Positions 3,524 to 15,466 are shown, numbered from the stretch's first letter. The stretch is DNA of 64,000 nt from a bacterium (GCA_963675755.2 CAXXMD010000002.1:800001-864000); one strand, 5' to 3'. The notes: generated by a model from the letters alone, not told the origin. Numbers and translations are program-made.

Positions 3524-5614
3524 TTATAAGACCTTAATCACAACAAATGTTAAATCATCTGTTGTGTTTTCTCCATCAAAGAACGTATAAATCTCGTGTA
3601 TGATCTGTTTTTTTATTTCTGCGGCTGATAAATGATGCAATTGCGCAAAGGCTTTTCCTAAACGTTCTTCACCAAATTCTTCACCGCTTCTGTTTCTGGC
3701 TTCAGTAACTCCATCAGTATAAAGTAAAAAAGTATGGCCGGTTTTTAGGGGCATTTTTAGCTGCTTTAATGTTTTCTCAAAGAGATTTCCGGAATCCAAT
3801 CCTACACCTAATCCTGAAGGCTCTAGTAATTCATAATCAAATTTACCTGTAGATGCAAACAAAATAGGACAATGACCTGCTCTGCAAAATGTAAATGTCT
3901 TTTTCTTAACATCAATTATACCATAAACCAGACTAATAAAGGTATTTCTATCAAAATTTTTATACAAGATGTTATTGGTGGGTATGAGCAGGTTTTTAGG
4001 AGTTTCATTTGCCCTGGCAAGAGCTTCCATGATCCCCTTCACTTCTGCCATATAAAAGGCAGCAGATGGACCTTTACCGGAAACATCACCAATTACCACA
4101 CCCAGGCGATCATCATCGATTTTGAAAAAATCATAATAATCACCACCAACTTCATTGGCAGTAATACAAACAGCATCTAACTCTATGCCTTCCAATTGGG
4201 GCATATCTTTGGGCAATAATTTCATTTGAGCTTCATGAGCAATACGAAGTTCCTGCTCGAGCCGTTCTTTAACGATTGATTCTTCAACCAACCTGGCATT
4301 TTCAATAGCCACAACAGCTTGTTCACAAAACGCACGCAGCATATCAACGTCATCTACTTCAAAGCCAAATTCTATTCGCTTCCCGGCATATAAAAATCCT
4401 ATTACCTTTTCATTATGAATCAAAGGTAAAACCAAAAGTGAGTGACAATCATGTTTCCATTTGCACAATTTCTTGGCAATAGGACTCTTTAAAGATTGAT
4501 TATTTAAAAAAGGCTCTTTATTGGTCTTTAACCATTCAGAAAGTGGATCATGAAATGACGGCTGCCTTCGTTTCAATTCTGAAGGCGAAAGATGCTTGGA
4601 CGATACAAGTTGTAATTCATTGGTCTTTGTATCCAGCAATTCGAGCCAGGAAAAATCCGCTTCGGTTACTTCTGTAGCAAGATTCACAATGGTAACAACA
4701 AGTTTGTTTATATCAAACTCGGAGCTCACTGCCCTGCTTAAATGATGAAAAGAAGAAATTTGTCTTATTTTTCTATCATACAATTGCGCTGTTGGCAAAT
4801 GACCAAGTAATGCAAAAAAAGCAATAATAATATATATAGTTAAAAAGATAATACTGGAATCAACAAACTTGCCCAATACAGGACTAAAAGAATAAACCGG
4901 ATTCAGTTTGTGAAATAAATAACCAAAATAAAACTGGATTGGAATCAGTATAAATCCACCCCAAAAACAGGCCAATTTCTGTTTGCGATTCAAATAGTTG
5001 ATCCAGGAGACACGGAAAGAATTGAAAACCATCAAATTGATGAGAATAAATAATATTACATATTCCAGATTATTAAAAAATCCTTTGTCAAGCCATGAAA
5101 ACTGTCTCAAGGTTTCCGGCAAACTGAATAACGGGTACAATAATAAAAAAATCATCAACCAGGTAAAATTACGGGCGGTAGATTTTTTACGTTTGATATA
5201 TATTAAATTACGTAACGTACCCAGGCTGATAAGCACAAATATAGTAACAAAAAATGTCCAGGATAATACAAAAATATAATTTCCGGCACTTGAATAGATT
5301 GCTTTATTGCCCTCATCAAAGTCAAACAAGAAATCCAAACGATCATTGGAAATAATCAATAACAAACAGGTAAATAATATCAAAAAGAAAAGCGAGCGTA
5401 ACCCACGTAACACATTTCGGTCAGAAGCCCATTTTTGTTTATAAACAAGAGGTAATGAAAGGATTAAAGCAAAAATAATAAAATATTCACGGATATAGAT
5501 AGCCGTTACCGGTGGTCCATCGCTCATGGCCATCATGTTCATATCCTGCACTACTGCTGCAATGAGCAATGCAAGGGGTAATAATAATGATAATTTACTG
5601 ATTTCTTTCATCAT
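3524..5614 (-). CDS. Multi-pass membrane GAF + PP2C/SpoIIE phosphatase
   Basis: About 8 hydrophobic segments in the N-terminal 270 aa, one GAF, then VGGDYYD, IGDVSGKG, RAGH, YTDGVTEA, DDLT. Confidence 0.9.
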   Translation of the reverse strand: MMKEISKLSLLLPLALLIAAVVQDMNMMAMSDGPPVTAIYIREYFIIFALILSLPLVYKQKWASDRNVLRGLRSLFFLILFTCLLLIISNDRLDFLFDFDEGNKAIYSSAGNYIFVLSWTFFVTIFVLISLGTLRNLIYIKRKKSTARNFTWLMIFLLLYPLFSLPETLRQFSWLDKGFFNNLEYVILFILINLMVFNSFRVSWINYLNRKQKLACFWGGFILIPIQFYFGYLFHKLNPVYSFSPVLGKFVDSSIIFLTIYIIIAFFALLGHLPTAQLYDRKIRQISSFHHLSRAVSSEFDINKLVVTIVNLATEVTEADFSWLELLDTKTNELQLVSSKHLSPSELKRRQPSFHDPLSEWLKTNKEPFLNNQSLKSPIAKKLCKWKHDCHSLLVLPLIHNEKVIGFLYAGKRIEFGFEVDDVDMLRAFCEQAVVAIENARLVEESIVKERLEQELRIAHEAQMKLLPKDMPQLEGIELDAVCITANEVGGDYYDFFKIDDDRLGVVIGDVSGKGPSAAFYMAEVKGIMEALARANETPKNLLIPTNNILYKNFDRNTFISLVYGIIDVKKKTFTFCRAGHCPILFASTGKFDYELLEPSGLGVGLDSGNLFEKTLKQLKMPLKTGHTFLLYTDGVTEARNRSGEEFGEERLGKAFAQLHHLSAAEIKKQIIHEIYTFFDGENTTDDLTFVVIKVL

Positions 5615-5676
5615 ATCCGCTTTTTTGTTCTATACGTTGATACGAATAAGCATATAAATAGTTACAATTATGTATG

Positions 5677-8061
5677 TCAAGTGAGTTTGAATATCAGCAT
5701 AGTCATATCGTCATGCTGTGGCGATGATTTTGTAAAAGCTTTAACTTTAACATTTATAAAATCAAGTAATTCTTTTGCTGTAGCATCATGATTATTGTGA
5801 ACAATTTCCTCAAGCATGGCTTCACTGAATTCGTGGTGATCTTTGTCCATAGCTTCTGAAAATCCATCTGTATAAAGAACCAATACATCACCTTTTGAAA
5901 GTGATACTGATTCTTCGGTTATAATTTTTTCAAATACAGGGCCTTTATCTAAACCAAGAGCCAGTCCGGGCGGACAAATAGTGCGTGTTTCATGATTACT
6001 TTTAAATATTAAAGGATTGTGCCCTGCTCTGGCGAATGTAAAAGTATATTTTTCAAGATCAAATACACCATAGATCATACTTATAAAATGACTTCTTTCA
6101 ACATTTTCATAAAACAGACTGTTGATTTCTGTCAAAACTTTTTGGGGCGAAAAAAGAGTTCGGGTTAATGACCGAATAAAACCTTTGGTCAAAGTCATAT
6201 AAAACGCTGCCGAAATACCTTTACCGGAAACATCGCCTATTACAATGCCCAGCTTTTTGTCACTATATTGAATAAAATCATAATAGTCGCCTCCTACTTC
6301 TTCAGCAGGATAGCAGATGCTGGCAATCTCCAGATTATTGATATGTGGATGAGAACGTGGTAAAAAATTGAGTTGTACGCGTTTCGCAATCTCAAGTTCT
6401 CTTTTTAAACGTTCCCTGTCGAGAATTCGCTTTACATGTTTGGGTGTAAATTGCACCAAATCATCTTTGCTTAAATCATTGCGAATTCCAATTAAAGAAC
6501 TGAATGCCATAATGAGTATTATCAACAGGAAAACACTCCCAGCCAGAACAAATGCCAAATGTTCAAAATGAAACATGCGGAGAGCTTCAAAAGTCAGTAA
6601 ATATACAAAATATGTTGTCAAAGAAGTCAAAAAATCATATTTCATAAATATGATTACAAAATATATTCCGGATATAAAATAAAACAAAGCGATAAACCAG
6701 GCAGGAGATGCTACAATATCATTAGGATTCGAACGTAATGCCCAAAATATTGCAACAATGAGAACAATCCATCTTTTCTTTGCGAAAAATCGTGCAAAAA
6801 AAGATGACAAAAATAAAACAAAAACAAATTGGATCCATATAGTCTCAGTAATAATCTTGCCAATTCTAAACAAAAACGGTGAATGACTATTAAGATCACG
6901 TATATCACTGCTGTATGGTACAAAATCAATAAATGTGAAAGATTGTGCTAGTTTGAACAATAAAATTGAAAAACCGGCAAAAATAATTCCCAAAGCGATT
7001 CCATGCAAGACAGATGATCCGGTAAAAGGATTGTAGAGTTTTCGATTTGTTGCGAGATCAAAGCTGAACAACTTTTCGTTCCAGGCATCACGTGTAATGG
7101 CATCAGCACAAGAGACAACAATTACACAAATAAAACCAGAAAACAAGGGTCCCAATATTAAACCACCCACCATTCTGCCTGTATCAACAGTTTGTGGCTG
7201 GAGCAAGAATTCTAATAAAACGGAAATAAACATCAAAATACCAAGAGGCAAAGCAGATTTAAGAGAAAGCTCATCATCCCTTAGCTTTTTAATAAAAATA
7301 TAGATAAAAGCACCGCTTATAACCAGGAATAATAACAGAACTGAAAACATTCGGTTCATAAAAGAACCTTCATCTGCTATATTTTCATAAACAAATTCGT
7401 AACGTCCAACCTTATCACCAATAAGATCAATTTCAATATTAACTGGAAGTTCAGCAATTTCACCAATACTGTAAATGACGGAATAATCTGTACGGGTATC
7501 CCGGGTTTGCTGCTTAATTCGTAAAAACTCAGTTTTACTACCAAATTTAGCAGCAATTAAAGAATCTGCAATTAATTTGGCAGTTTCCTGACTTATGCTT
7601 GACAGCATACTATCTTCGTAAGCTTCAATCCAGAATGATATTTCTTCTCCTGATTGATTTAGATTCAAACCAATCCTTTTAATCCAACCCGGGAAATCAT
7701 TATTTATTAGAGAATTCGAATCTAAAGAAGCATTAGCATTGGTCGTCCACATAATTGACCAATAATATGCAGGTAGATTGTGTGACATGTAATATTCAAC
7801 ACTGTCATAATCAGTAAAATATTTACTGATATACCGAAGTAAACCTTTTCTGACTCTTAATTCAGTGACAATTTCATTGTCACCTGAAGAATATCCCCAT
7901 TCAGCAAGGCTTTGTTCCGCAAGCTGTTCAATTTGATCACGATTTAATTTAAAAGACAGATGCGCAGATGGAAACAGTAATGAATACCATGAAACAAGTA
8001 TGGAGACTGCTATAACGGTAAATAGTAGGTATACTAGAGTTTTAGAGTTGATATTTTTCAT
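5677..8061 (-). CDS. Membrane sensor PP2C/SpoIIE phosphatase with an extracytoplasmic domain and a multi-TM region
   Basis: N-terminal TM, about 200 aa soluble region, about 9 TM segments, then VGGDYYD, IGDVSGKG, RAGHNP, YTDGFSEA, QHDDMT. Confidence 0.9.
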   Translation of the reverse strand: MKNINSKTLVYLLFTVIAVSILVSWYSLLFPSAHLSFKLNRDQIEQLAEQSLAEWGYSSGDNEIVTELRVRKGLLRYISKYFTDYDSVEYYMSHNLPAYYWSIMWTTNANASLDSNSLINNDFPGWIKRIGLNLNQSGEEISFWIEAYEDSMLSSISQETAKLIADSLIAAKFGSKTEFLRIKQQTRDTRTDYSVIYSIGEIAELPVNIEIDLIGDKVGRYEFVYENIADEGSFMNRMFSVLLLFLVISGAFIYIFIKKLRDDELSLKSALPLGILMFISVLLEFLLQPQTVDTGRMVGGLILGPLFSGFICVIVVSCADAITRDAWNEKLFSFDLATNRKLYNPFTGSSVLHGIALGIIFAGFSILLFKLAQSFTFIDFVPYSSDIRDLNSHSPFLFRIGKIITETIWIQFVFVLFLSSFFARFFAKKRWIVLIVAIFWALRSNPNDIVASPAWFIALFYFISGIYFVIIFMKYDFLTSLTTYFVYLLTFEALRMFHFEHLAFVLAGSVFLLIILIMAFSSLIGIRNDLSKDDLVQFTPKHVKRILDRERLKRELEIAKRVQLNFLPRSHPHINNLEIASICYPAEEVGGDYYDFIQYSDKKLGIVIGDVSGKGISAAFYMTLTKGFIRSLTRTLFSPQKVLTEINSLFYENVERSHFISMIYGVFDLEKYTFTFARAGHNPLIFKSNHETRTICPPGLALGLDKGPVFEKIITEESVSLSKGDVLVLYTDGFSEAMDKDHHEFSEAMLEEIVHNNHDATAKELLDFINVKVKAFTKSSPQHDDMTMLIFKLT

Positions 8062-8451: not shown

Positions 8452-9024
8452 TTATTTACCGGGTTCGGTAAATATTTGAGCAGAAAAAATAAAAATATCC
8501 GCATTTTGATCTTTCCAGGCACTTTCCTTCAACCCTGCTTTTATACAGGTATGCTGTAAAAAAGTTTCAACATCCCACTCATTTTCTGTTGCAACCTGTG
8601 GTAATAAAAGACCTCTACGATAACCTTTTTCAATATAAAGCCCATGTTCACCAATGTGAATCTCTTCAATAGATGATAAGCGGTGCATAGGTGTTAAAAC
8701 TGATATCTCTATTTCCAAATCATCAACTTCATGCTTTTCAACGGGATCAAAGCGAGGATCACGCAATGCAGCAGCTTCTGCCATCTCCATTATCGTTTCA
8801 AGCAATGGTTTAACTGCCTGCACATACCCTATACATCCACGCAGTTGTTTATTTTTATGTAAAGTTACAAATGCACCAAATTTTTCATTAAATACAGTGT
8901 GTTGATAATCTTTATTCATTACAGGACGCTGTTGGTGAGTAACTGCTCCAATAGTTTCTCTGGCAATTTGTAATAATGTTGTTTGTTCTTCAAGACTTAG
9001 AATATCTATTACCTGACTATTCAT
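8452..9024 (-). CDS. amrA: AmmeMemoRadiSam system protein A (AMMECR1 domain), stand-alone, no signal peptide
   Basis: GAFVTLHKNKQLRGCIG, AALRDPRF, EISVLTP, GLLLPQVA, CIKAGL. Confidence 0.92.
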   Translation of the reverse strand: MNSQVIDILSLEEQTTLLQIARETIGAVTHQQRPVMNKDYQHTVFNEKFGAFVTLHKNKQLRGCIGYVQAVKPLLETIMEMAEAAALRDPRFDPVEKHEVDDLEIEISVLTPMHRLSSIEEIHIGEHGLYIEKGYRRGLLLPQVATENEWDVETFLQHTCIKAGLKESAWKDQNADIFIFSAQIFTEPGK

Positions 9025-9050
9025 GATATTCTCCTCTTTTTATATAAATA

Positions 9051-10511
9051 TTATTCTTCAAATACCTGGGTTTTATATACCCAGAATTCTGCTCCATCTT
9101 TCCATGCATTTCGATCCAAGCCGGCTTTTCTGCAAAGACTTGACATTTCTTCATCAACAGTTTTCCAGCCAGCCTCAATAGGCACTTCGGGTAAATATGT
9201 TGCTCGTTTTCCATCCTTTATTAATATAATACCTTGTTTACCCATTTTAAATTCCGTGATTGAATTAATTTTATAGACATTACTCAAATAAACAGATATT
9301 TTGATGTGGATTTTATCAAATTCATCAGGCGTTAGCGGTGCAAACCGCGGATCTCCAAAGGCAGCAGATACAGCCATATGAGGTACAAGTTCATTCAAAG
9401 GACGATCTGATTCATGCTGCCCAATGCAGCCGCGTAACATTCCATCAATGGTTAATGTAACAAAAACACCACGCTTCTCTGTCATCTCATCAGTTTTGGG
9501 TTCAAAAGAAGTCAGTTTTCCCGTTCGCATATAACCCAAAATGCTCTCACGGGCTATTTTTAACAACTCTTTTTGGGTTTCCTGATTAATTGTATGGTAT
9601 TCGATTTTTCCCAAAGTGGATTTTGAAAAAACTATAGCACCATATCCTACAACATATCCTTCTTTAACTCCCATTACATCATTAGAATTGGTTCTAGCCT
9701 GCAAGGTTGCTTTATATTCTCCCATCTGCTGCAAAGCAACCTGCATGATAACTACGGGTGCACCTCCGCAGGCTTGAAATTTATCATTTAACAAACCTTC
9801 ACACAATCGTTTTGGCTTTAAATCCATAATCGCATCAAGTGTATTTTTGTCTGTTTTATTACATTCTTTATAAGATTGTCCATGATATAAATCTGTACTG
9901 GCAACGATTAACACATTTTTATTTTTAACAGTATTAAATATTGCATCCCCAATGGATTTGCATTGTTCCCAATTAAATCCACCTACCACAATGGGTACAA
10001 TAGGAGTTTTAGGAAAAAGTTTCTGAATAAAAGGTAATTGCACTTCTATTGCATGCTCTTCCCTGTGACCCAGGATAGAAAATTGAATGAACTCACTTTT
10101 TTCTACGATTTCATTGGCAACGGATTTGTCTATATTAACATTGCCTAATGGTGTTTCGTACATATCACCATTATATACAGTTGCTCCATAAAAGGGATCG
10201 CGATGACTGGGAGCCATTACGATTATAAAATCATAGGTGTTCCCTTTCAGGCACTTGTATGCCTGTGCAGCGGTTTGGGCAGAAAATCGATACCCTGCAT
10301 GTGGAACCATAATGGCATCAATTTCCCCATCCGGCTTTTGAGCAGGATCTCCCGATAACAATTCATCCAAAAATTCACTTAATTGTAATGGATCTTCAGG
10401 ATAAAAGCTACCGGCAACAGCAGATTTCCGTGTTATATCTGCAAATAAAAAATTTGAATAGAAAAAAAACAAGATTAGAATGAAAGAATAGACCTTTAGT
10501 AAGGTTTTCAT
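9051..10511 (-). CDS. amrB: AmmeMemoRadiSam protein B (Memo) fused to a C-terminal AMMECR1 domain, with a predicted Sec signal peptide
   Basis: Memo motifs RKSAVAGSFYP, VPHAGY, APSH, EEHAIEVQLPF, STDLYH, ACG. C-terminal GVFVTL...LRGCIG...DPRF...TYLPEV...CRKAGL. N-terminus MKTLLKVYSFILILFFFYSNFLFA. Confidence 0.9.
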   Translation of the reverse strand: MKTLLKVYSFILILFFFYSNFLFADITRKSAVAGSFYPEDPLQLSEFLDELLSGDPAQKPDGEIDAIMVPHAGYRFSAQTAAQAYKCLKGNTYDFIIVMAPSHRDPFYGATVYNGDMYETPLGNVNIDKSVANEIVEKSEFIQFSILGHREEHAIEVQLPFIQKLFPKTPIVPIVVGGFNWEQCKSIGDAIFNTVKNKNVLIVASTDLYHGQSYKECNKTDKNTLDAIMDLKPKRLCEGLLNDKFQACGGAPVVIMQVALQQMGEYKATLQARTNSNDVMGVKEGYVVGYGAIVFSKSTLGKIEYHTINQETQKELLKIARESILGYMRTGKLTSFEPKTDEMTEKRGVFVTLTIDGMLRGCIGQHESDRPLNELVPHMAVSAAFGDPRFAPLTPDEFDKIHIKISVYLSNVYKINSITEFKMGKQGIILIKDGKRATYLPEVPIEAGWKTVDEEMSSLCRKAGLDRNAWKDGAEFWVYKTQVFEE

Positions 10512-10575
10512 TTCAGACTCCCAACATATAACATATTATAATATATAGAATATAGGCGATATAGCAAGAAAATTA

Positions 10576-11709
10576 TTATTGCCAAACACCAGCAATAGCT
10601 TGCCCGCAATAAGCGCAATTACCATCATGCATATGATTTTCAGTAACTTTGAAGCCTTTACGTCCAATCAACAATTTTCCGCAATCCGGGCAATAGGTAT
10701 TTTCTCCTTTATCACCAGGTATATTTCCGGTATACACAAATTGTAAACCGCTATCAATACCAATCTGACGAGCGGTTTGTAAGGTTTTTATAGGTGTAGA
10801 TGGCACATTTTTCAAGCGGTATTGTGGATGAAATCTGGAAAAATGTACCGGTGTTTCGGGCCCCAATTCAGAGGCAATCCATTTACACATTTCCGATAAT
10901 TCGTTGGGATCATCATTTTGGCCGGGGATTACAAGATACACAATTTCGGTCCACATATTGTTGTGTTTGAGCAAAACCAACGTATCCAATACCGGACGGA
11001 GCTCTCCTGATACCAACTCTTTATAAAAACGTTCGGTAAATGCTTTTAAATCAATTTTGACCGCATCCAACACCTCAACAAGATCTCGCATTGGCTCTGG
11101 TTTGATATAACCATTAGAGATCATAACACTTTTAATCCCCTTTTCACGCCCCTTAACGGCCGAATCGTACATATATTCTGTAAAGATAACCGGCTCCGTA
11201 TATGTATATGCAATAGATTTACATTGGTAAACATCTGCCAGGTCAGCAACTTTTGTCGGGGACATATCATAATTTCGAATTTGTTCAGGACGAGATTGAG
11301 ATATTTCCCAGTTTTGGCAGAATTTGCAAAACACATTACAACCTGCGGTTGCAATTGAAAATGCCAATGTGCCAGGCAAAAAATGAGACAAGGGCTTTTT
11401 CTCGATAGGATCAACATTAGCTGAACAAGGTTTACCATAGACCAGGGTATAATATGTTCCATTTTGGTTTTCACGAACACCACAATACCCTCTCTCCAAA
11501 TCATCAATTACACATTCACGGGGACACAATTGGCATTGTATTTTACGGTTATCCAGTTTTTTATAATATCTTGCTTCAACAAGCTTAAAGTCTTGCTTCA
11601 AGCTAGCACCATAACCATTTACAGACAAGTTTAAAGCAGTTGAGCATACCCCAAAAGCACAAGCCGAGCAAGTTGTTTTAAGATAATCTCGTCTTGATAT
11701 TTTTTTCAT
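10576..11709 (-). CDS. amrS: AmmeMemoRadiSam system radical SAM enzyme with a twin-arginine signal
   Basis: CQLCPREC...GYCGVR, DPIEKKPLSHF, radical SAM motif GCNVFCKFCQNWEISQ, AYTYTEP, C-terminal CPDCG/CAYCG. N-terminus MKKISRRDYLK. Confidence 0.92.
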   Translation of the reverse strand: MKKISRRDYLKTTCSACAFGVCSTALNLSVNGYGASLKQDFKLVEARYYKKLDNRKIQCQLCPRECVIDDLERGYCGVRENQNGTYYTLVYGKPCSANVDPIEKKPLSHFLPGTLAFSIATAGCNVFCKFCQNWEISQSRPEQIRNYDMSPTKVADLADVYQCKSIAYTYTEPVIFTEYMYDSAVKGREKGIKSVMISNGYIKPEPMRDLVEVLDAVKIDLKAFTERFYKELVSGELRPVLDTLVLLKHNNMWTEIVYLVIPGQNDDPNELSEMCKWIASELGPETPVHFSRFHPQYRLKNVPSTPIKTLQTARQIGIDSGLQFVYTGNIPGDKGENTYCPDCGKLLIGRKGFKVTENHMHDGNCAYCGQAIAGVWQ

Positions 11710-12704
11710 AATTGAATCAGCTCAATATTGTTCATGTTATTTGTGCCCAATTTGTGATTTTCGTCAGCAGCAGTTTGAATATAGATCGGCTCACGACCAA
11801 CCTCTTTTAAAGTTGGGAAACCTTTTTCTCGTCGTTTTTGCTCAATAACATCCCAGGCAAATGTATCCATAGCAACAGGATCCGTACCCAATACAAGACT
11901 GTTCATATTCCATGTCCATTGAGGCATATATGGAGGACCACCCTCATATTGTGGGGTAATTGCATCACAAATAATGAGCCGGGTTTTATTACGAATAATG
12001 GGTAACATATTCACATCCGCAACATATGGATCACCTACATTATCATGATATTTATTGGGATTATTGATGACACCAAAATTATTTTTCATTGCTGCACTGA
12101 CACCTACAATACCATGATCCTTAAGTATAGGTATATTGATTATTGCAGTGCATTGTTGTTCAAGAATCAGGGAAATCAAACTTGCTACGGATCCATATTC
12201 ATACAATTCACGAGAAAATCCCGTTTTATTTGATCCATAACACTGAACTTTGCGCCTTCCCTGGTATAATTTGTAACCTGCTCGCTCCAAGTCACGATCA
12301 TGTCGGTCCCATACAATAATATGATTTGCTGGAATACCAATTTTTTGCAATTTCAATGAAATAGCTTCAACCAATTCTATATTTGTGGAAAGACCGCGCC
12401 CTGCAAGACAATTAACTTTTAATCCAACGATGTCATCTTTTGCGAAAAGCTGGTTCCATACATCATCAGCAGGTAAATCATAAAGTTTGCTTATACCTGA
12501 ATCCAATAATTGAACAAGATTTTGAACAGAAATCCCCTGTTTTGACAATAATTCATTTTGATTTGCACAAACAATACGTGATTTCATGGAACCATTTGCA
12601 ACACTAGGATTTGCTATTGTATTTGCAAAAAGTCCAGTACTATGTAATGCGCCTGCCGCCCCGGCAGTGAGTGTTGTGTTGAGAAATTCTCTACGATCGA
12701 GCAT
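11706..12704 (-). CDS. DUF362 domain protein with a twin-arginine signal
   Basis: VGLKVNCL, INIPILKDHGIVGVSAAMKNNFG, GTDPVAMD are DUF362-type motifs. N-terminus MLDRREFL. Stop overlaps the amrS start (ATGA). Confidence 0.8.
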   Translation of the reverse strand: MLDRREFLNTTLTAGAAGALHSTGLFANTIANPSVANGSMKSRIVCANQNELLSKQGISVQNLVQLLDSGISKLYDLPADDVWNQLFAKDDIVGLKVNCLAGRGLSTNIELVEAISLKLQKIGIPANHIIVWDRHDRDLERAGYKLYQGRRKVQCYGSNKTGFSRELYEYGSVASLISLILEQQCTAIINIPILKDHGIVGVSAAMKNNFGVINNPNKYHDNVGDPYVADVNMLPIIRNKTRLIICDAITPQYEGGPPYMPQWTWNMNSLVLGTDPVAMDTFAWDVIEQKRREKGFPTLKEVGREPIYIQTAADENHKLGTNNMNNIELIQL

Positions 12705-12723
12705 ATTTTAATATCTCCAAACA

Positions 12724-12755
12724 AAAAAACCGTGATCGATTTGAACACGGTTTTT
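12724..12755 (-). terminator. Intrinsic terminator downstream of the REC-PAS-GAF gene
   Basis: aaaaaaccgtg-atcgatttgaa-cacggttttt inverted repeat flanked by A/T tracts. Confidence 0.65.
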
Positions 12756-12779: not shown

Positions 12780-15146
12780 TTATCTCAGAAAACGTTCAAC
12801 CAATTTTTTAAATCCGGTTTTGGTAAAATCCGCATCGGCAAAATAATCTGAAGCAAGCTGACTGTTATCCTGAGATGGATTTGCTTGTGGTTCAGGCTCA
12901 ATTTCAGGCGGTTCCGGAGGTTCTGGAATACTAGTGTCAAAAGCTGTTGTATTTTCAGGTGTAGTATTGTATTCAACATTAGCAAGATCATTAAATGTTG
13001 AACCATTTCCGCCTTCGTCTTCTATTTCTTCCTGATTATAATCCTGAATATTGTCATTAACTTCTGTTGGATCATTAAACACAGATTGTTGAACTGTCTG
13101 CACAACAGGTTGGTGTACTACAGGCTCAGTATTGTATGAATGTGAAGAACTGGATAATTTCTGAGGTTCTGCTTTTTGTACCAGTTGAGGAGCCTGAATC
13201 TGCTCTTTAGCTTGAACATACATGACACGGTTATCAATAGCTATTGCAATTTGATTTGCAAGTATTTCCAGGGTATGCAGGGTATCTTTATTTGGCATTC
13301 TGCAATCATTCGGATCATCAGCCATTAAAAATCCAATGATTTTCTCTTCTTTGGACTTTATGGGTACAATGACTACAGCCCAGTTTGGCCAGCCACCTTC
13401 ATAATACTCACCTTCTTCTGAACCATAATAAATGCGTTTTAAATGATCAAATACCGGTTCCTGATTCTGAACCAGATATGATTTGCCTTGTAGATAATCT
13501 TTGCGTAATAATTGACTGTATTCTTTGAGATTATAATTTAATTCCTTGATCTGAGCCAGTTTTATCTTGTCATCACATGCTACGGCTTTGGTTTCAAGCA
13601 TACCACTCTTTTTACTGATCAAGACAAGAGAAACAAGGTTGAAATCCAATGAAAATTTGACTGACCAGACAACTTCTTTGAGTAATTCACTCAAACTGTA
13701 ATACAATTTAAATACATTACTGTTAACCAGAATCTGTTTCATGCGACGGTTGCGACGTTCAAGTGTAGAAATACGATAGTAATTTTCAACCGTAACGGAA
13801 ACCAGCCTGCTGAATAATTCCAGATTGTAAAAAGTGGATTTTGTAGGTGTATTACCTTCACCCGGCTCGTCCAAAGATATATAACCAAAGGTATTGTTGT
13901 TTTTATCAGCAAGATTCAGGATAATCAGGTCACGTTTATGCCATTGTGCAATGGGCGATGTTTCCTGAGAATCATTTTTAACCAGTTCATTATTCAAGTG
14001 ACTTGCTAACTGGCGACGTTCTTTGTTGTGATAAATCACCTTAATGCGAGATTTATCTGCAAATACTTTATCAATAACACGCTGGGGAACTTCAATATTG
14101 TCTTTTGAGGAATTTTCTCGCGCAGAATAACCTACCATTGCCTGTTTTACATATGCATGCTTGCGCGGATCCAAAAGCGCAACGGTTGATCGTTTAAATC
14201 CAAAAACCTGGCATACCAATTCCGAAAGATTTTTTAACAAGACTTCAATAGATTCAGAATAACTACGATGAATGATATCAATTACTTCTGATATCATTTG
14301 TTTTTGATCAACAGTTTTTTGTACTACAAAGGTACCGGAAGATTTTACATGGACTTTGACAAGGTTTCCACGAAATCCAATGACATGATTTTTATCATTA
14401 TCGTCATAAATGAGAGAAATTTGTAATTTTGCAGGTATCTTTTCACCGGTTTTTGCAATAACATACACTTCAAATGACATTGCCGGTTTTTTAATTGCAA
14501 CATTGAGGATCTTGTTGAAAAAATCAGTATCATCAACAGATGCAAGTACATCATCGATAGTTAATTCCAGTAATTCAGCATTAGTATATCCTGCTACATC
14601 TTCAATATATTCATTAGCGGAAAGAAAACGGCGCTTACGGTCACAAACAAAATAACCAATTTCACCACTTTGTACATGCGGGATATCTGTTTCAAGTAAA
14701 TTTTTGGGTTCTTCAACTTCTATAATAGGCAGTTCATCATGAACCGGCATGGGTTCTGGCAAGGGTTCATCGGGATGGACTTTGAACTCGGCTGCTCGTT
14801 TGAGGCTTTCTGATAATGCAGAAAGATAGCCTTTCTTTTTGACAACAAATTCAAAAACACCCAAATTTTGCACATCCTGAAAAATCTGTTCATCATCTTC
14901 ATTTACAGTCAAGATGGTTGGATGAATACGACTGATCTTTTTAAGCGTTTCCGTAAAAGAATCATGATGTCCATTAGCCAGTTCACTGTCAATTAACAAA
15001 ATATCAAATTCTACATTCGTAAACTGTTCCTGCACTTCCTTTAAAGAAGTTGCTCCAATTGGATTATATTCATCATTTTGTACGCTTATGACCTGTCGGG
15101 TTGCTTCTACATATGAGGCATTCGGATGCGCTATTGATATTTTCAT
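12780..15146 (-). CDS. Atypical REC-PAS-GAF-GAF sensory protein with an acidic low-complexity tail and no recognisable output domain
   Basis: REC-like FDILLIDSEL...FEFVVKK; PAS GYFVCDRKRRFLSANEYIEDVAGYTNAELL; two GAFs (..TFGYISLDEP.., ..IIGFLMADDP..LEILANQIAIAIDN). Likely start is ATG 15146 (track start 15200). Confidence 0.75.
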   Translation of the reverse strand: MKISIAHPNASYVEATRQVISVQNDEYNPIGATSLKEVQEQFTNVEFDILLIDSELANGHHDSFTETLKKISRIHPTILTVNEDDEQIFQDVQNLGVFEFVVKKKGYLSALSESLKRAAEFKVHPDEPLPEPMPVHDELPIIEVEEPKNLLETDIPHVQSGEIGYFVCDRKRRFLSANEYIEDVAGYTNAELLELTIDDVLASVDDTDFFNKILNVAIKKPAMSFEVYVIAKTGEKIPAKLQISLIYDDNDKNHVIGFRGNLVKVHVKSSGTFVVQKTVDQKQMISEVIDIIHRSYSESIEVLLKNLSELVCQVFGFKRSTVALLDPRKHAYVKQAMVGYSARENSSKDNIEVPQRVIDKVFADKSRIKVIYHNKERRQLASHLNNELVKNDSQETSPIAQWHKRDLIILNLADKNNNTFGYISLDEPGEGNTPTKSTFYNLELFSRLVSVTVENYYRISTLERRNRRMKQILVNSNVFKLYYSLSELLKEVVWSVKFSLDFNLVSLVLISKKSGMLETKAVACDDKIKLAQIKELNYNLKEYSQLLRKDYLQGKSYLVQNQEPVFDHLKRIYYGSEEGEYYEGGWPNWAVVIVPIKSKEEKIIGFLMADDPNDCRMPNKDTLHTLEILANQIAIAIDNRVMYVQAKEQIQAPQLVQKAEPQKLSSSSHSYNTEPVVHQPVVQTVQQSVFNDPTEVNDNIQDYNQEEIEDEGGNGSTFNDLANVEYNTTPENTTAFDTSIPEPPEPPEIEPEPQANPSQDNSQLASDYFADADFTKTGFKKLVERFLR

Positions 15147-15466
15147 ATTACCTGCTACTCCAATATAATTCAGCAAAAAGCTCTGAAATTCACGAAACAA
15201 TTAACAAAAATTTGTACACATAATCAAGAAAATAGATAATAAATACTGTCGAAAAATGATGTGATTACTTTTTGCCACATTTAAAAGAAAAAATATACAA
15301 TTTTGGGTAATCGCAAATTACATTTTTGAAAAGCATTATTATCATCCATTTACTCATGTTGATTTTTATATACTTAGACATACAATTGTCTGGTTATATT
15401 TAAAACAAAATTAAATCCAACAAACATCCAATTTAAAGCAAAATCCAAGCCAAAAAGAGTATTGAC

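Follow-up and report, generated by a model that had tools for sequence, protein, structure and literature searches.

A DUF362-linked, putatively envelope-targeted version of the AmmeMemoRadiSam system in a bacterial genome

The four-gene locus

We analyzed a 64,000-nucleotide (nt) stretch of bacterial DNA (GCA_963675755.2 CAXXMD010000002.1:800001-864000; hereafter, the window), in which four adjacent minus-strand open reading frames (ORFs) at 8452–12704 encode, from 5' to 3', a DUF362 protein, the radical S-adenosylmethionine (SAM) enzyme AmrS, a Memo-AMMECR1 fusion, and a second, stand-alone AMMECR1 protein. The four genes are probably a single operon, and the AmmeMemoRadiSam system that they encode would be an envelope-targeted version. 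The locus resembles the canonical system (AMMECR1, TIGR04335; Memo, TIGR04336; the radical SAM enzyme, TIGR04337) in that all three families lie together in adjacent genes on one strand and score above their cut-offs, and in that the catalytic Cys motifs are identical in the leaderless relatives. It differs from the canonical system in that AmrS carries a twin-arginine translocation (Tat) leader, Memo and AMMECR1 are fused behind a general secretory (Sec) leader, and two genes are added, one for DUF362, which is present at 0 of 61 leaderless AmrS loci, and one for a leaderless AMMECR1.

The DUF362 protein (332 residues; 11706–12704, minus strand) starts MLDRREFLNTT and matches PF04015 with 66.2 bits, the only family match that a Pfam search returned. 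AmrS (377 residues; 10576–11709, minus strand) starts MKKISRRDYLKTT and matches TIGR04337 with 414.6 bits against a cut-off of 220. The Memo-AMMECR1 fusion (486 residues; 9051–10511, minus strand) starts MKTLLKVYSFILILFFFYSNFLFA, followed by DITRK, and combines a TIGR04336 domain at residues 28–295 (252.9 bits; cut-off 26) with a TIGR04335 domain at residues 315–484 (157.1 bits; cut-off 99), and the leaderless AMMECR1 (190 residues; 8452–9024, minus strand) matches TIGR04335 with 198.6 bits from residue 16 onward. These matches bear out the gene identities proposed in an earlier note on this DNA, as does the layout of the first two genes its claim that they are translationally coupled: the DUF362 stop codon (TGA) and the AmrS start codon (ATG) share the tetranucleotide ATGA at 11706–11709 (minus strand), as read in the sequence, and this overlap couples the translation of the two genes. 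The remaining gaps are 64 nt between AmrS and the fusion and 26 nt between the fusion and AMMECR1; a Shine-Dalgarno-like motif stands ahead of each downstream gene, and a Shine-Dalgarno-like GGAGA lies 9 nt 5' of the DUF362 ATG.

The operon probably begins at DUF362, because a hairpin followed by a T-run (12723–12752, minus strand; inverted repeat aaccgtg / cacggtt, then seven T) separates that gene from an upstream regulator gene, of which it is the likely terminator. A consensus scan was uninformative; it returned 66 promoter-like sites where 55.8 were expected and nine terminator-like sites where 7.3 were expected, and this hairpin was not among them.

Export-type leaders and the clade that carries them

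The Tat motif is of the type S/T-R-R-x-F-L-K and lies near the N-terminus. AmrS fits it with S-R-R-D-Y-L-K, within a leader that reads MKKISRRDYLK followed by 26 uncharged residues and extends from residue 1 to about residue 40. Because the TIGR04337 match begins only at residue 46, residues 1–45 are an add-on to the family domain. We surveyed the first 40 residues of the 120 best AmrS homologues for the strict motif RRx[FYLIVMW][LIVMF] and found a twin arginine (RR) in 117 of them (strict motif in 113, RR alone in four more); the remaining three begin within or past the leader. Detailed statistics were taken from the 115 homologues with a delimitable leader and compared with 500 shuffles. In these, the median distance of the RR is five residues from the start and 35 from the mature domain that follows, and an uncharged run of at least 13 residues follows it in 110 of the 115. 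The leaders show the full layout of n-, h-, and c-regions, with a median n-region of five residues and a median of 1.60 for the maximum 12-residue hydropathy. In the AlphaFold model of AmrS, residues 21–38 of the leader have a predicted local distance difference test score (pLDDT) below 50 and the core a high one, as expected of a detachable signal.

The DUF362 protein has a comparable leader, with the motif D-R-R-E-F-L-N in MLDRREFL and the h-region TTLTAGAAGALHSTGLFA; its 22 uncharged residues end in LFA, followed by N. An RR is present in 112 of its 120 best homologues (strict motif in 109, RR alone in three). Among these 112 RR-bearing homologues, 31 have a lipobox-like motif 9–32 residues past the RR, a count that none of 500 shuffles reached (mean 4.6). 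Since a lipobox makes sense only outside the cytoplasm, these motifs are an independent mark of location.

The leader of the Memo-AMMECR1 fusion is of the Sec type and comprises 24 residues, MK plus a hydrophobic stretch ending in FLFA, followed by D. A hydrophobic N-terminal segment, defined by a 10-residue Kyte-Doolittle mean of at least 2.0, precedes the Memo domain in all 58 Memo or Memo-AMMECR1 proteins of DUF362-linked loci (58/58), with a lipobox-like motif in nine of them; Memo proteins that adjoin leaderless AmrS begin directly at the domain, without a leader. Because its leader is of the Sec or lipoprotein kind, the fusion could encounter AmrS nowhere but outside the cytoplasm. The earlier note had read export signals on three of the four products, and this reading holds across the clade. 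These comparisons of N-termini give good support to the export targeting of all three proteins, AmrS, DUF362, and Memo-AMMECR1.

The stand-alone AMMECR1 has no room for a leader, because its domain begins at residue 16 and the upstream stop codon is 26 nt away; without one, it should remain cytoplasmic. Such a gene follows the fusion in four of 19 AmrS loci with an RR leader (hereafter, RR-AmrS) and in seven of the 80 best DUF362-subfamily loci. It probably completes a dispersed cytoplasmic set together with a second, leaderless AmrS (G000:C3:334323-335300, L005 8312-9325; 337 residues, 340.9 bits on TIGR04337) and two leaderless Memo paralogues (C3:2891589 and C2:957953, the latter with ~125 extra N-terminal residues) that are encoded elsewhere in the genome; AMMECR1 domains in the genome are confined to the operon in the window. 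The second AmrS gene adjoins an aldo-keto-reductase-like gene and genes for small membrane proteins; neither Memo nor AMMECR1 is encoded in its vicinity.

The genome encodes TatC (244 bits; G000:C1:205710-206330), and a loose scan for twin-arginine motifs returned 190 ORFs, the DUF362 and AmrS genes of the operon included. Many proteins on this list are sulfatase-like, oxidoreductase-like, Gfo/Idh/MocA-like, or sugar-phosphate-isomerase-like, often with canonical RRxFxK starts; the predicted Tat secretome is very large, and in many of its members a lipobox follows the RR leader.

The leaders and the DUF362 gene go together. We scanned one-genome-per-species contigs for AmrS and obtained 80 loci, among which DUF362 lies directly upstream in all 19 RR-AmrS loci (one DUF362 is cut by a contig end) and within 6 kb in none of the 61 others. 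This agrees with the co-occurrence that the earlier note had proposed as a check, as do the leaders of the linked Memo proteins, and the RR motif itself, whose conservation it had also raised, is kept in the homologues of both proteins. Memo or Memo-AMMECR1 follows downstream in 13 of the 19 RR-AmrS loci. On a tree of 80 AmrS cores from which the leaders had been removed (the window and 79 loci; L094, a truncated one, was left out), the RR label requires a single change (Shimodaira–Hasegawa-like approximate likelihood ratio test support 94), and none of 500 label shuffles gave as low a number; RR-AmrS is one clade on this core tree. A reverse scan with the DUF362 alignment matched at least 599 stretches of the one-genome-per-species data, at least 590 of them confirmed as relatives of the subfamily. 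Among the best 80 of these loci, 72 have at least 600 nt of downstream sequence, and AmrS is the next gene in 68 of the 72; of these 68 AmrS proteins, 65 show the strict RR motif and two a looser RR, while the last shows no RR. DUF362 is, on these comparisons, the hallmark of the putatively exported AmrS clade, a point that the earlier note had missed.

The record labels of the same best 80 loci include Acidobacteriota (42/80), Calditrichota, KSB1, Latescibacterota, Vulcanimicrobiota, Zixibacteria, Ignavibacteriota, and Zhuqueibacterota, although some labels (e.g., 'Cytophagia') may be unreliable. Sister to the RR clade stands an AmrS from Elusimicrobiota (L033 3930-5268) with a strongly hydrophobic N-terminal segment and a ~60-residue linker; it lacks an RR motif, and we detected neither DUF362 nor Memo nor AMMECR1 at that locus. 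At another locus (L161 3982-6500), a DUF362 gene without an RR and without an AmrS is directly followed by a leader-bearing Memo-AMMECR1, and the NPNKYH loop described below is kept.

The operon is flanked by genes on the same strand (3524–8061 and 12780–15200), with a response-regulator/PAS/GAF protein of 806 residues upstream and, downstream, a 93-residue ORF without a family match and SpoIIE-type phosphatases of 794 and 696 residues, the latter with a GAF domain. About 10 of the 19 RR loci share this gene order (regulator, DUF362, AmrS, Memo-AMMECR1, phosphatase), which may reflect either a regulatory link or shared ancestry only. Other RR operons have genes for the metabolism of SAM by-products or methionine just upstream, namely an IF-2B/MtnA-like protein (PF01008) with a UPF0047 protein in three loci (L029 3176-4697, L030, and L031) and a homocysteine S-methyltransferase (PF02574) in four (L021 609-1478, L024, L026, and L027).

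AmrS, DUF362, and their predicted complex

Judged by its residues, AmrS looks intact as a radical SAM enzyme. Its CX3CX2C motif (C124/C128/C131) is invariant, and it has two extra motifs, an N-terminal 4-Cys motif (C59/C62/C66/C76) and a C-terminal one (C340/C343/C365/C368). The CX3CX2C motif, both 4-Cys motifs, and other core residues are conserved at 95% or more in the RR and leaderless groups alike, and because all Cys motifs are kept at this level, the putatively exported clade does not have the look of a relative that has degenerated and works without SAM. In the PDB, the fold closest to the AmrS core is that of pyruvate formate-lyase activating enzyme (PFL-AE; 8fo0, 3c8f, and 3cb8), with an E-value of 1.8e-14 and a template modeling (TM) score of 0.81 over the target, and PFL-AE was also the sole relative of AmrS found by a sequence search of the PDB (E 3e-8). 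AmrS differs from PFL-AE in its extra N- and C-terminal 4-Cys motifs and in falling below the TIGR02493 cut-off. We rejected an assignment of AmrS as an activase of a glycyl-radical enzyme, for which it scored 63.1 bits on TIGR02493 (cut-off 231.75) and 41.9 bits on TIGR02494 (cut-off 174.35); neither in the operon nor immediately beside it did we recognise a gene for a glycyl-radical enzyme.

For DUF362, an AlphaFold (AF2) model built from 70 sequences has a mean pLDDT of 91.5. Foldseek placed LarA-family structures first against this model (9q3j, 9eia, 7s91, 6d6z, and 5huq; E 3e-5 to 3e-3, probability 0.98–1.0, TM over the query 0.34–0.48), and the top 12 matches were all LarA-family structures or 4nar (E 3e-5 to 7e-4, probability 1.0, TM over the query 0.38–0.48); 4nar is Thermotoga maritima Q9WYS3, a structural-genomics entry of unstated family. 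The model suggests that DUF362 has a fold like that of LarA, whose family comprises the nickel-pincer nucleotide racemases and epimerases (DUF2088/Lar_N), and DUF362 and DUF2088 are placed in one Pfam clan, CL0471, in a published account of the LarA superfamily (PMC11770544). DUF362 also shows a residue pattern, H197-x9-K207-x12-H220, and the genome's own LarA homologue has H-x9-K-x15-H; the His/Lys/His residues of the two are candidates for equivalence. The likeness has limits: the TM scores are just 0.34–0.48, DUF362 does not match the Lar_N family (PF09861), a sequence search of the PDB gave nothing meaningful (best E 0.55), and an hhalign comparison of the DUF362 alignment with the genome's own LarA homologue was not significant (probability 0.13%), so that the link to LarA rests on the fold match and the Pfam clan. 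Three Lar_N (LarA-type) genes are present in the genome (C2:769668-770279, C3:831850-832434, and C2:2297197-2297703), and LarC (PF01969) had no match in this genome, which is rated 98% complete. The DUF362 loop at residues 214–221 (NPNKYH) is invariant across the subfamily, leaderless members included, and contains no glycine. The literature that we searched assigned no function to any DUF362 protein.

AmrS and DUF362 are predicted to dock with their active-site faces together. We modeled AmrS residues 40–377 with DUF362 residues 38–332, each supplied as an alignment, alongside three controls. The pair received an ipSAE (interaction prediction score from aligned errors) of 0.84 (0.81, 0.85, and 0.84 in the individual runs), against 0.00 for the best control, with a pLDDT of at least 93 for each partner and at least 96% of contacts common to the runs. 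In a calibration that is only rough here, as our own alignments were used, 116 of 157 solved complexes attained the corresponding mark, as did two of 215 mismatched pairs. It seems unlikely that the score reflects model memory, because we know of no solved complex of the AmrS and DUF362 families. On the DUF362 side the predicted interface consists of H197–I199 and the invariant loop 214–221; on the AmrS side it consists of residues 66–77, which belong to the N-terminal Cys motif, together with 127 and 129 of the cluster loop. In a comparison that does not draw on the model's confidence, four of the 11 AmrS positions that are conserved only in the RR clade (D70, E72, Y75, and Q143) fall among the 24 interface positions of 332 (hypergeometric p = 0.005), a calculation that treats phylogenetically non-independent positions as separate.

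In five loci (L029–L032 and L042), an RR-AmrS stands beside a DUF362 that has no room for a leader. These pairs suggest piggy-back export of a complex. According to one report (PMC10924467), the Tat system carries certain substrates across as heterodimers in which one partner bears the signal. AmrS and DUF362 resemble such Tat cofactor enzymes in having a cofactor, twin-arginine leaders, a predicted tight heterodimer, and single-leader variants in some loci, but differ from piggy-back complexes in that both partners have leaders in most loci.

Site of the radical chemistry

Radical chemistry outside the cytoplasm is, in our assessment, the most likely reading of these data, and a fairly probable one. 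AmrS, with its PFL-activase-like fold, and DUF362, with its predicted LarA fold, would fold and gain their cofactors in the cytoplasm and bind each other with their active-site faces together; the Tat system would then carry the pair across the inner membrane by means of the twin-arginine leaders. The Memo-AMMECR1 fusion would cross unfolded by Sec, the three proteins would come together at the outer surface of the inner membrane, and the leaderless AMMECR1 would remain inside the cell. Substrates reachable there might be an envelope lipid, an isoprenoid, or an exported molecule, and RNA would be out of reach. DUF362, as the gain of the exported clade, would either hold a substrate or cofactor for AmrS or be modified by AmrS on its NPNKYH loop. 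The earlier note had argued against an RNA substrate for the operon's version of the system, and this argument is reasonable, because Memo-AMMECR1 could meet AmrS only outside the cytoplasm.

A more far-reaching proposal, which we advance tentatively, is that the whole radical SAM clade may perform SAM-dependent chemistry at the outer face of the cytoplasmic membrane, as a Tat-exported heterodimer of AmrS and LarA-fold DUF362 acting with a Sec-exported Memo-AMMECR1, and that SAM may be delivered by a dedicated membrane protein. A candidate for the latter, which we regard as a lead and no more for SAM handling outside the cytoplasm, is a polytopic protein, ~750 residues long, that has a Spermine_synth domain (PF01564, spermidine-synthase fold) at its center and adjoins RR-AmrS in six of the 19 loci (L028 8579-10813, L029 7634-9919, L042 2561-4702, and matching genes in L030–L032). 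Crude hydropathy analysis of these proteins gave inconsistent counts of 12–15 helices, and a crude positive-inside count, which was consistent for the C-terminal bundle only, placed the soluble PF01564 domain outside in six of seven proteins. We rejected the homologue in the present genome (G000:C2:2166107-2168338) as part of the system, as it lies 1.3 Mb away between a thioredoxin-like gene and an 816-residue ORF without a family match. We also set aside a NapG/NapH-like pair (C2:634355-636253; L097 4356-6253), a Tat-leader ferredoxin of 200 residues and a membrane polyferredoxin of 431 residues encoded among BamB/PQQ-like beta-propeller genes, which lies ~165 kb from the operon in an unrelated context.

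Several observations weigh against catalysis outside the cytoplasm, or against parts of the case for it. SAM and low-potential one-electron donors are cytoplasmic, and nothing in the operon supplies either SAM or a low-potential electron. The case for export is a comparative one, the complex score is a model's confidence rather than a measurement, and the profile comparison with LarA and the non-independence of the RR-clade-specific positions, both noted above, count on the same side. The leaders themselves have two odd features. The A-x-A motif is not enriched at the end of the AmrS leaders (38 of 115 against 33.1 in shuffles, with 84 of the 500 shuffles reaching 38), which makes cleavage uncertain; the leader in the window ends G-Y-G-A, followed by S, and may stay on as an anchor. 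A Cys is conserved early in the h-region, the first Cys standing at RR+7, +8, or +10 in 76 of the 115, and only five of the 115 leaders contain no Cys at all. This residue is too near the RR for a lipobox (leader region in the window, 11590–11709), and no explanation considered here covers it.

One alternative that takes the cytoplasmic location of SAM and reductant into account is that maturation precedes export: AmrS would use SAM in a cytoplasmic complex to modify DUF362 or a cofactor in its LarA-like pocket and would then be, once outside, a passenger or structural subunit without radical chemistry. The predicted tight complex leaves room for such a step. The best fold match of AmrS, PFL-AE, acts on a protein loop (3cb8 holds a peptide substrate), and in the predicted complex the DUF362 loop 214–221 and H197–I199 touch the cluster loop of AmrS (127 and 129) and its residues 66–77. 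A PFL-type glycyl-radical mechanism does not apply, as the DUF362 loop is without glycine. For a maturase confined to the cytoplasm a leader would be superfluous, whereas 117 of 120 AmrS homologues retain the RR and AmrS is the sole leader-bearing partner in five loci; moreover, its canonical partner Memo-AMMECR1 is Sec-targeted and would meet AmrS outside only. We consider this alternative, the main rival to our reading, unlikely. It has a precedent in the HXS anti-phage system, in which radical SAM enzymes mature a periplasmic protein (PMC13128918). HXS is the nearest precedent for the AmrS operon and resembles it in tying radical SAM chemistry to a protein that ends in the periplasm, but its families are unrelated to AmrS, Memo, and AMMECR1. 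In the HXS study, the matured effector HxsA is located in the periplasm, and HxsB and HxsC were below detection at native levels and were assigned no localization (PMC13128918).

It is also conceivable, but in our view improbable, that the RR leaders are not export signals at all and instead are remnants, peptides to which a chaperone binds, or anchors on the cytoplasmic side of the membrane, with AmrS working inside. All characterised radical SAM enzymes are, to our knowledge, cytoplasmic; in certain molybdoenzymes of the cytoplasm, a remnant of the twin-arginine peptide persists and serves to bind a chaperone; and the lack of A-x-A enrichment and the odd conserved Cys could be read in the same way. 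The full n/h/c layout with its long uncharged run in 110 of 115 leaders argues against such a role, as do the marks on the partners that fit the outside only (lipobox-like motifs in 31 of 112 DUF362 proteins and Sec or lipoprotein leaders on 58 of 58 Memo proteins), and cytoplasmic AmrS would split the system between two compartments. Finally, the leaders might be translated upstream DNA in front of true starts that lie farther downstream, a general risk of gene calling to which the alternative in-frame TTG or GTG starts of some homologues add. The chance of this is negligible, since, for either gene, over 90% of 120 homologues keep the leader at the protein level, the start codon of AmrS overlaps the stop codon of DUF362, and GGAGA stands 9 nt ahead of the DUF362 ATG.

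The literature that we searched named no radical SAM enzyme among described Tat substrates and reported neither an exported radical SAM enzyme nor an operon of the type DUF362/AmrS/Memo-AMMECR1; that search did not extend to Burroughs et al. 2019 (J Biol Chem), which may already refer to secreted forms or to a connection with DUF362. The latter, the main comparative paper on Memo-AMMECR1 systems, reportedly links the Memo clade to nucleotide-base and isoprenoid modification. Radical SAM enzymes are among the largest enzyme superfamilies, and a clade of AmrS with Tat leaders would, if export is confirmed, overturn the rule that they work only in the cytoplasm. Confirmed export would call either for a route by which SAM and electrons cross the membrane or for an enzyme that is loaded, exported, and used once. 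The role of the AMMECR1/Memo/radical SAM trio has long been an open question, which the finding narrows: if the system operates in the envelope, it could not act on RNA, and its substrate would instead be one accessible from the membrane or the periplasm. For DUF362, it offers a first testable role, as the partner of a radical SAM enzyme.

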